A model generated the notes under the pieces. That model was not told the origin of the DNA. It saw nothing but the letters and a program-made list of their open reading frames with translations, and searched no databases. Positions 1,542-2,227 of a stretch of DNA of 64,000 bases are shown here, piece by piece. The first letter of the stretch is position 1. Each line of letters starts with the position of its first letter. The DNA comes from Dictyostelium discoideum (lineage: Eukaryota): NCBI GenBank assembly GCA_000004695.1, contig CM000151.3, positions 8,288,001-8,352,000 on the forward strand, given 5' to 3'. The translations under genes and the position numbers were made by a program.

Positions 1542-1881
1542 TTATTCACATTCAAAATCTGGTGGGCATCTAACATCATCACAATTGTTGATTGGTACAC
1601 AACACATTTCATCTTTGACAGGATCATATTTACATTCAAATCCTGGTTGACATTTTATATCCTTACATCTTGAATCATAACTTTTTGGTACAACAAATTT
1701 CATCTTTAAATGAATCATATTCACACTCATTACCTATTGGACATTGAACATCTTTACATTTATAATTATTATAATTACTAGATTGATCAATTACACATGA
1801 CCTTTCATTATTTTTAATTTCACAATGATATCCTTGTGGGCAACAAAGTGTTGAACAATCTTTTGATTAAAATAAAATTTA

Positions 1882-1913
<32 letters not shown>

Positions 1914-2227
1914 CATTAATAAATATTTAATTAAAAAATAAAAAATAATAATAATAATAAATTATAATTACCAGTAATTATTGGACCATCTGTATCACAT
2001 ACACATGATCTTTCATTATTTTTTATTTTGCAATGGTACCCAGTGGGACAAGTTAATGTTGAACAATCTGATTAATAGATATTAAAATTAATATTTTGTT
2101 TTTATATATATTTTTTTTTATATAATAAAATTACCTAAAGCTGAAGGTTTCCAGTTATCATTACTATTTGCATTTGAGTGCGGTACATAAAGGAAATATA
2201 ACAATGCTTTTAAATATAAATTTTCAT
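1542..2227 (-). CDS. secreted cysteine-rich modular repeat protein (one exon per Cys module), with two internal frame disruptions; possible pseudogene or sequencing indels
   Basis: The minus-strand exons are 2227..2135, 2067..1972 and 1859..1542. The introns are 2134..2068 (GTAATT...AATCAG) and 1971..1860 (GTAATT...AAAAG). Exon phases join cleanly as ...KPSAL|DCSTLTCPTGYHCKIKNNERSCVCDTDGPIIT|DCSTLCCPQGYHCEIKNNERSCVIDQ.... The last exon has tandem modules C-x-PGFEC-x-YD-x-KDE-x-CCVP. A signal-peptide-like stretch LKALLYFLYVPHSNA follows the ATG but sits in a different frame. The ATG frame hits TAA after 5 codons, consistent with a 1-nt T-run indel. A second shift lies between ...DEICC and VPKSYDSRC, where a 2-nt 'tg' is missing relative to the paralogous repeat tgtgttgtgtacca. 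The ORF track independently shows both frames. Confidence 0.45.

Follow-up and report, generated by a model that had tools for sequence, protein, structure and literature searches.

Spore-coat proteins have been reported to share small cysteine-rich repeats. For example, SP60/cotC, SP70/cotB, SP75/cotD and SP96/cotA carry C4C repeats (West 2003, as cited in PMC3068167). In that paper (Kodali et al., PMC3068167), the C-X4-C-X5-C-X6-10-C motif of spore-coat proteins is ascribed to West and co-workers, its copies in SP75 are called C4C modules, and the motif is described as common to spore-coat proteins and avian CREMP. According to its structure (PDB 9PGB), the CREMP module is a beta-hairpin of the truncated-EGF-like type, held by two disulfides in a 1-3/2-4 pattern (PMC12723725). 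In this study, we analysed a 64,000-nucleotide stretch of Dictyostelium discoideum DNA (the window, which has a GC content of approximately 20% and long spacers of poly-A and poly-T), and we believe that its minus-strand locus at 1542-2227, which carries modules of this kind in a broken frame, is probably a recently inactivated, still transcribed pseudogene.

The locus is predicted to consist of three exons and two phase-1 GT..AG introns (Table 1), with a GC content of 7% and 4% in the introns and 28-32% in the exons; splicing is deduced from these sequence features. The first-pass annotation had placed the ATG at 2227-2225 and the TAA at 1544-1542 and had described the introns as phase-1 symmetric, and our minus-strand reading agrees with it exactly, both introns splitting a G/AT Asp codon directly 5' of the first cysteine of a module. 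As they stand, the three exons add up to 507 nt, which is 0 mod 3, so the ATG frame is also the C-terminal frame and the displacement is confined to the middle of the locus (2221..1690, approximately 530 nt at the genomic level). The locus is flanked on the plus strand by an unannotated ORF fragment at 1276-1506, for which no Pfam match, homologue or repeat copy was found, and by a tRNA-His gene at 2826-2897.

Table 1. Features of the locus and of the gene models deposited for it, in window positions.
Feature	Position	Strand	Description
ATG	2227-2225	minus	start of exon 1
Exon 1	2135..2227	minus	93 nt; ATG and leader ENLYLKALLYFLYVPHSNANSNDNWKPSAL, the leader in the -1 frame
Intron 1	2068..2134	minus	67 nt, GTAATT...CAG, phase 1, GC 0.07; also used by the ACTFIT gene model
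Exon 2	1972..2067	minus	96 nt, symmetrical phase 1-1; D, C4C module 1 and linker DTDGPIIT
Intron 2	1860..1971	minus	112 nt, GTAATT...AAG, phase 1, GC 0.04
Exon 3	1542..1859	minus	318 nt; modules 2, 3 and 4, truncated module 5 and TAA
Stop TAA	1544-1542	minus	end of exon 3
Module 1	2065-1997	minus	CSTLTCPTGYHCKIKNNERSCVC, in exon 2
Module 2	1857-1792	minus	exon 3, followed by a linker
Module 3	1758-1690	minus	exon 3; end broken by lesion 2
Module 4	1667-1593	minus	exon 3
Module 5	1583-1542, including TAA	minus	exon 3; truncated, 3 Cys
Lesion 1	2221..2224	minus	A4 homopolymer right after the ATG; A5 would restore MKNLYLKALLYFLYVPHSNA in frame with the modules
Lesion 2	1687..1695	minus	TGTTGTACC, TGTTGT^ACC; GT/TG missing relative to TGTTGTGTACCA in module 4; frame shift of -2 in the CCVP end of module 3
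C/A-rich motifs	2404..2518	sense (-)	ACACCCAC at 2410-2403 and ACCACACCCA at 2518-2509; 183 and 291 nt upstream of the ATG; candidate GBF/CAE-type promoter elements
DDB_G0277633 ORF	1542..1730	minus	62 aa; first 13 residues MSVNMIHLKMKFV are an out-of-frame reading of NECEYDSFKDEICC; no signal peptide
ACTFIT_004939 first exon	3027-3019	minus	9 nt, ATGGCTTTG
ACTFIT_004939 first 'intron'	2229..3018	minus	790 nt; joins ATGGCTTTG to AAT GAA AAT...; bypasses lesion 1; spans the antisense tRNA-His gene
ACTFIT_004939 46-nt 'intron'	1681..1726	minus	GC 0.26 (exon-like); encodes ECEYDSFKDEICC; removes lesion 2

Translation from the ATG reads MKIYI* and stops after five codons; the leader ENLYLKALLYFLYVPHSNA is encoded, like modules 1-3, in the -1 frame relative to it. 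When the A4 run (2224-2221) was lengthened by one A and GT was inserted at 1690, the frame was uninterrupted over 169 codons and contained 23 cysteines. Both shifts had been suspected in the first-pass annotation, the first as an initiator ATG 1 nt out of frame and the second as a 'tg' unit lost relative to the neighbouring repeat, and both were borne out, the one by the restoring effect of a single extra A and the other by the alignment of module 3 with module 4. Past lesion 2, sense continues in the third frame as far as the stop. Besides the two shifts, no further stop or indel was found in the module frame. A stop-free frame of 168 codons of the same composition has a chance probability of approximately 1e-7, and the two off-frames hold 9 and 36 stops. 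Programmed frameshifting was rejected on inspection: the A-run lacks a slippery heptamer of the X XXY YYZ type, and the frame reached by shifting +1 at the TAA is the wrong one.

The repaired protein contains a leader followed by four complete C-X4-C-X5-C-X8/9-C modules, which start at residues 33, 65, 98 and 129, and a truncated fifth module at residue 157. The last spacer is X8 in modules 1-2 and X9 in modules 3-4; DCSTLTCPTGYHCK and CQPGFECK are example peptides of the region. The internal repeats were recovered by tblastn at E ~1e-13, and the C-X4-C-X5-C-X6-10-C pattern had no second site in the window once trinucleotide repeats were set aside. One cysteine module per exon had been claimed for this gene, which is right for exon 2 and wrong for exon 3 with its four modules; of the three terminal modules claimed, two are complete and the third is truncated, with three cysteines. 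A perfect signal peptide had been claimed in the first-pass annotation. By hydropathy and by eye, the repaired N-terminus starts with MK as its n-region and continues with a short hydrophobic core and a motif, S-N-A, that resembles a cleavage site; core and motif follow the MK start only once lesion 1 is repaired. A single-sequence AF2 model of the annotated protein had a mean pLDDT of 55; at this low confidence, it placed hairpins in modules 1, 2 and 4, each between the third and fourth cysteines.

The displaced frame was searched by exhaustive HMMER against 1.84 billion representative proteins, and this search was needed because a word-index search recovered the ACTFIT model alone, without the AX4 entry. 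There were 19 relatives. The best of them, P0002 (E = 3.9e-29), carries the Pfam domain Dicty_spore_N (PF04562), and others were P0006, a 'prespore protein' (1e-11), and P0011, 'spore coat protein SP70' (2e-5). The D. discoideum protein P0010 (E = 7e-6) also carries PF04562, and its resemblance to SP96 was judged by eye. Pfam has no model for the C4C repeat, and the relatives match only Dicty_spore_N, Kazal and similar domains. On the repaired protein, the Pfam scan found no family above threshold (the best was TILa, E = 0.006, 17 bits against a 27-bit cutoff) and no Dicty_spore_N domain. Only one PDB sequence matched the repaired protein, namely 9PGB (9pgb_A, E = 0.0034), and the match covered three modules with the cysteines in register. 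The homology to spore-coat proteins supports the first-pass description of a cysteine-rich protein that would have been secreted.

The module of the locus, C-X4-C-P-x-G-[YF]-x-C-X8-9-C-V in tandem, is that of the spore-coat proteins. Unlike them, the locus lacks a Dicty_spore_N domain as well as mucin-like or Pro-rich repeats, and it packs five modules into approximately 150 mature residues; one module stands on a phase 1-1 exon of its own, and the disrupted frame means that the locus does not encode a working coat protein. With CREMP, it shares the Cx4Cx5Cx8C spacing, and the beta-hairpin expected between Cys3 and Cys4 is predicted by AF2 at low confidence. CREMP, however, has more than 2000 residues of near-identical modules as well as VWD domains, whereas the locus has a small number of divergent modules, each with a fifth cysteine in addition (VC, CC). 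Membership of a multigene family had been suggested, and it holds for the broad spore-coat C4C superfamily found by HMMER; no close paralogue or orthologue was found by the word-index search, by tblastn in the window or by exhaustive HMMER, and tblastn found no paralogous module elsewhere in the 64-kb window. No intact homologue of at least 50% identity was present in the 1.84 billion representative proteins or in a 5.8-billion-cluster search, although prokaryote-style gene callers would miss an intact terminal exon, as it has no in-frame ATG, GTG or TTG. The outcome of the searches for close relatives suggests a lineage-specific gene.

The paralogous modules were compared by the Nei-Gojobori method. 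The pS and pN values were 0.65 and 0.12 between modules 1 and 2, 0.47 and 0.18 between modules 3 and 4, and 0.56 and 0.15 combined (47 codons, Fisher p = 1.5e-5), in a test that compares short paralogous modules with structurally constrained cysteines. The excess of pS over pN indicates that the module frame was long under purifying selection after the internal duplications. As there is no disabling change besides the two shifts, the inactivation appears to be recent relative to these duplications.

The same locus is present in the databases as DDB_G0277633 (XP_642569.1, Q54ZC8; 62 aa) and as ACTFIT_004939 (KAM9946622.1; 156 aa), both named 'hypothetical protein', and neither entry notes the frameshifts or the C4C homology. 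DDB_G0277633 was not named in the main text of any paper found, and no literature was found on the ACTFIT/JBTAPE assembly. In AX4 developmental RNA-seq (PMC4403905, Additional file 7), DDB_G0277633 is listed both as UP_Hr14_gradual (filter_UP column 23) and as DOWN_Hr14_gradual (filter_DOWN column 17), the columns being assigned from the sheet headers and from tab and ordering patterns. Listing in both directions at Hr14 indicates a transient peak at approximately 14 h, and hence a promoter that is still active and developmentally regulated. This post-aggregative timing is like that of the spore-coat proteins, but the transcript of the locus drops after 14 h and does not persist as theirs do. 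DDB_G0277633 does not appear in the searchable supplements of the cell-type RNA-seq paper. Upstream of the ATG there are two ACACCCA motifs, which we take to resemble the C/A-rich GBF elements (CAEs) of cot genes. ACACCCA is not enriched across the window (6 observed against 3.4 expected), and we regard the two upstream copies as developmental promoter elements only as a lead.

In a second D. discoideum assembly, GCA_054883475.1, both lesions are identical base for base. The locus of this assembly aligns with window 1-13052 at 99.4% identity, and there are 42 SNP or indel events over the shared 13 kb, which mark it as independent of the window; from window position 1214 to 3249, the sole difference is a SNP at 1913, in intron 2. 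The AX4 protein (Q54ZC8 / DDB_G0277633) starts with MSVNMIHLKMKFVVPKSYDSR, which is the shifted-frame reading through lesion 2, and is thus a third witness for this lesion. Lesion 1 is confirmed in two sequences only, the window and GCA_054883475.1, and these could share one laboratory lineage (NC4). A third genome with the locus was not found: a look-up of the 154-aa neighbour protein gave GCA_054883475.1 only, and a search with the adjacent gene gave only Logan contigs of at most 1.3 kb. The sequence of the window is itself not error-free, as T substitutions are suspiciously clustered in a neighbour gene (patch 11651-11825), which also has a premature stop, and neither is present in GCA_054883475.1.

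If both shifts were sequencing or assembly indel errors, the gene would be intact in the organism. Lesion 1 falls in a homopolymer, the window has at least one error-prone-looking patch (11651-11825), and many of the differences between the assemblies are differences in homopolymer length; yet the run at lesion 1 is only 4 nt long, the indels between the assemblies are all in much longer runs, and lesion 2 is not in a homopolymer at all. The identical lesions in an independently assembled genome that differs elsewhere, together with the AX4 reference proteome entry that reads across lesion 2, argue that the lesions are not sequencing errors, and we consider this explanation extremely improbable. 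Recent decay or two indel errors had been left as alternatives in the first-pass annotation; decay is supported, and errors are effectively excluded by this evidence. A functional gene could also be sought in ACTFIT_004939, a 156-aa product whose translation would begin 790 nt upstream, in a 9-nt exon, and which would lose the second frameshift with a 46-nt intron. We reproduced this model exactly with GT..AG boundaries, both lesions being avoided by splicing; it is a full-length type of model in a deposited newer annotation, the locus is transcribed, and the N-terminus MALNENLYLKALLYFLYV is still hydrophobic. However, the GC content of the 46-nt segment is far from the 0.04-0.07 of the real introns, and in the module frame its peptide agrees with ECKYDPVKDEMCC of the next module at 9 of 13 residues. 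Loss of these 46 nt takes out three cysteines and fuses a half-module, the stretch in which the AF2 model has its lowest confidence (36-38). The first intron exceeds the mean D. discoideum length of 146 nt (PMC3188802) more than fivefold, contains a complete antisense tRNA-His gene and depends on a start in a three-codon exon. A citable minimum intron length was not found in the literature. Both rescues are placed exactly where simple slippage lesions account for the frame. When all in-frame ATG mini-exons with a GTAA or GTAT donor were enumerated over 1.37 kb upstream, there was only one other, whose start lies within the tRNA gene and which would require an intron of 584 nt. We judge the 790-nt and 46-nt 'introns' to be annotation artefacts, the workaround of a predictor; we see no credible start or splice rescue, and a functional ACTFIT_004939 is very unlikely.

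Even less probable is that the 62-aa DDB_G0277633 is the functional product, in which case the 3' end of the old gene would have given rise to a new small protein. This ORF is ATG-initiated and stands in the reference annotation, and RNA-seq reads map to it and change in development; but it is merely what remains 3' of shift 2, with an out-of-frame by-product as its first 13 residues, and exhaustive HMMER found no homologue of this N-terminus. Its disulfide modules need the secretory pathway, for which it has no signal peptide, and at least the ATGs at 2239, 2227 and 2188 come before its own if transcription starts at the old promoter. The lesions might instead be a segregating loss-of-function allele, with an intact functional gene in other wild D. 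discoideum isolates or in sister species, a reading that is compatible with the pseudogene explanation and not opposed to it. The decay seems to be very recent (no other lesions, an active promoter, omega well below 1), and the genome sample is two or three; against it, the protein searches gave no intact homologue of at least 50% identity. We consider it unlikely, though less so than the other alternatives. A narrower version is somewhat less likely still, in which a lineage-specific mini protein of the spore coat or matrix has a young loss-of-function allele that may be segregating, while intact alleles persist in wild D. discoideum. If true, the locus would be a natural knockout for an extracellular protein under developmental regulation, and also a rare case outside the metazoans of an EGF-like module carried by a symmetrical phase 1-1 exon, which is what exon shuffling works with.

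Under the pseudogene explanation, which we prefer, the ancestral gene would have encoded a secreted protein of approximately 169 residues, with a signal peptide and five tandem two-disulfide C4C modules as in the repeats of SP60/70/75/96. This protein was probably a small, disulfide-cross-linkable part of the post-aggregative extracellular matrix or of the spore coat. In the intact state, the gene would have had A5 at 2221-2224 and TGTTGTGTACC at 1687-1695. Both lesions bear the signature of replication slippage, one event having shortened A5 to A4 after the ATG and another having removed GT from the TGTTGTGT run. Ribosomes that start at the native ATG would then no longer reach the modules in frame, and the modules are probably no longer translated.

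The finding is ordinary biology together with a useful correction of two database entries, and it opens no major question. Its main value lies in this correction, since two public gene models are both wrong, one being a remnant ORF and the other splicing around two frameshifts; DDB_G0277633 and ACTFIT_004939 illustrate how a young pseudogene in an AT-rich genome can be masked by gene prediction. The locus also adds a repeat-only, intron-containing member to the family of spore-coat C4C modules and documents birth and death in this family.

In animals, EGF-type modules on symmetrical phase 1-1 exons are the paradigm of exon shuffling. A classic exon-shuffling layout had been claimed for this locus. 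Shuffling itself is not demonstrated: introns 1 and 2 are not similar beyond base composition (no signal of co-duplication, the local alignment score being reached by 264 of 500 shuffles), there are no introns between modules 2-5, and no evidence was found that exon 2 has moved between genes. Unlike the animal EGF-module exons, there is only one such exon, and the other four modules lie in a single exon. As a description of exon 2, the claim is accurate. Like an animal EGF-module exon, this exon has introns of the same phase on both sides, at the same codon position of the module, and encloses exactly one truncated-EGF-like module, which makes the locus a clean amoebozoan case of a phase 1-1 exon that carries a module.

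Relatives of the repaired pseudogene protein that were found in the HMMER search carried C4C-like modules. These modules, for example TCLTLTCVQGTHCEQKNGKASCV, were present in P0004, P0009, P0012, P0015, and P0018, and their identity to modules 1-2 of the pseudogene was up to 51%; P0015 and P0018 additionally contained Kazal domains. The leaders of these five proteins look like the lipoprotein type. The contigs of P0004 (locus L002) and P0009, which were both examined, had prokaryotic gene content, including a PIN/PhD toxin–antitoxin pair, GNAT, and glyoxalase. The range of the C4C-like module is therefore wider than dictyostelids and animals.

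The features located in this part of the analysis are collected below.

Features of the window and their coordinates
Feature	Window position	Strand	Remarks
Open frame, 76 codons, GGRLVFTQDDVELGYTLVGKSIG...HLVFLQVG*	1276-1506	+	GC 0.33, exon-like
ACACCCA heptamers	2404-2410, 2509-2515, 3121-3127	- (all)	Sense orientation of pseudogene
tRNA-His(GTG) gene	2826-2897	+	Opposite strand to pseudogene, 600 bp upstream of its ATG
Second B-box-like GGTTCAATTCC	2936-2946		~39 nt downstream of tRNA-His(GTG) gene
Single-exon gene with SNP cluster	gene 11682-11852, cluster 11651-11825	-	Window vs GCA_054883475.1
Homopolymer indels	337-340, 1207-1214, 7123, 7418, 10219, 11901 etc.		Window vs second assembly
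Dictyostelium class I RNA gene	15967-16009	-	Rfam RF01414, 43.7 bits
Dictyostelium class I RNA gene	16316-16369	-	Rfam RF01414, 51.8 bits
Gln/Pro-rich coding repeat, CAACCACCACAACCACAACAATTA units	53600-53800	+	

Compared with the independent genome GCA_054883475.1, in which the single-exon gene is intact and encodes 264 aa, the window copy had a premature stop at codon 57 and five amino-acid changes. At nearly all differences of the SNP cluster the window base was T on the sense strand of the gene, and the cluster is either a low-quality patch of the source assembly of the window or a strain-specific lesion. All indels of at least 4 nt that were missing from the second assembly lay inside long A or T homopolymers. 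At these long runs the second assembly was consistently the shorter, which suggests that homopolymer length is systematically biased in one assembly or the other.

The stop codon of the pseudogene lies 35 bp from the end of the 76-codon open frame, and the two are convergent. The open frame lacks an initiating ATG, and no exons are visible upstream of it. It gave no Pfam match or homologue, has no second copy across the window, and was left unannotated in the second (ACTFIT) assembly; it may represent an orphan exon or a further gene relic. On the other side of the pseudogene, half of the six ACACCCA heptamers in the window were grouped inside 720 bp in its sense orientation, two of these three in its proximal promoter. 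The B-box-like sequence is similar to the external B box of Dictyostelium tRNA genes; no retrotransposon was evident beside the tRNA-His(GTG) gene.

The two class I RNA genes are spaced ~300 bp apart. The skewed, GC-rich patch at 52-54 kb arises from the Gln/Pro-rich repeat. The stretches at 30300-30420 and 39830-39875 showed up solely as poly-Cys when the minus strand was translated, and presumably represent long trinucleotide tracts. Low-complexity coding sequence of this kind is typical for Dictyostelium.
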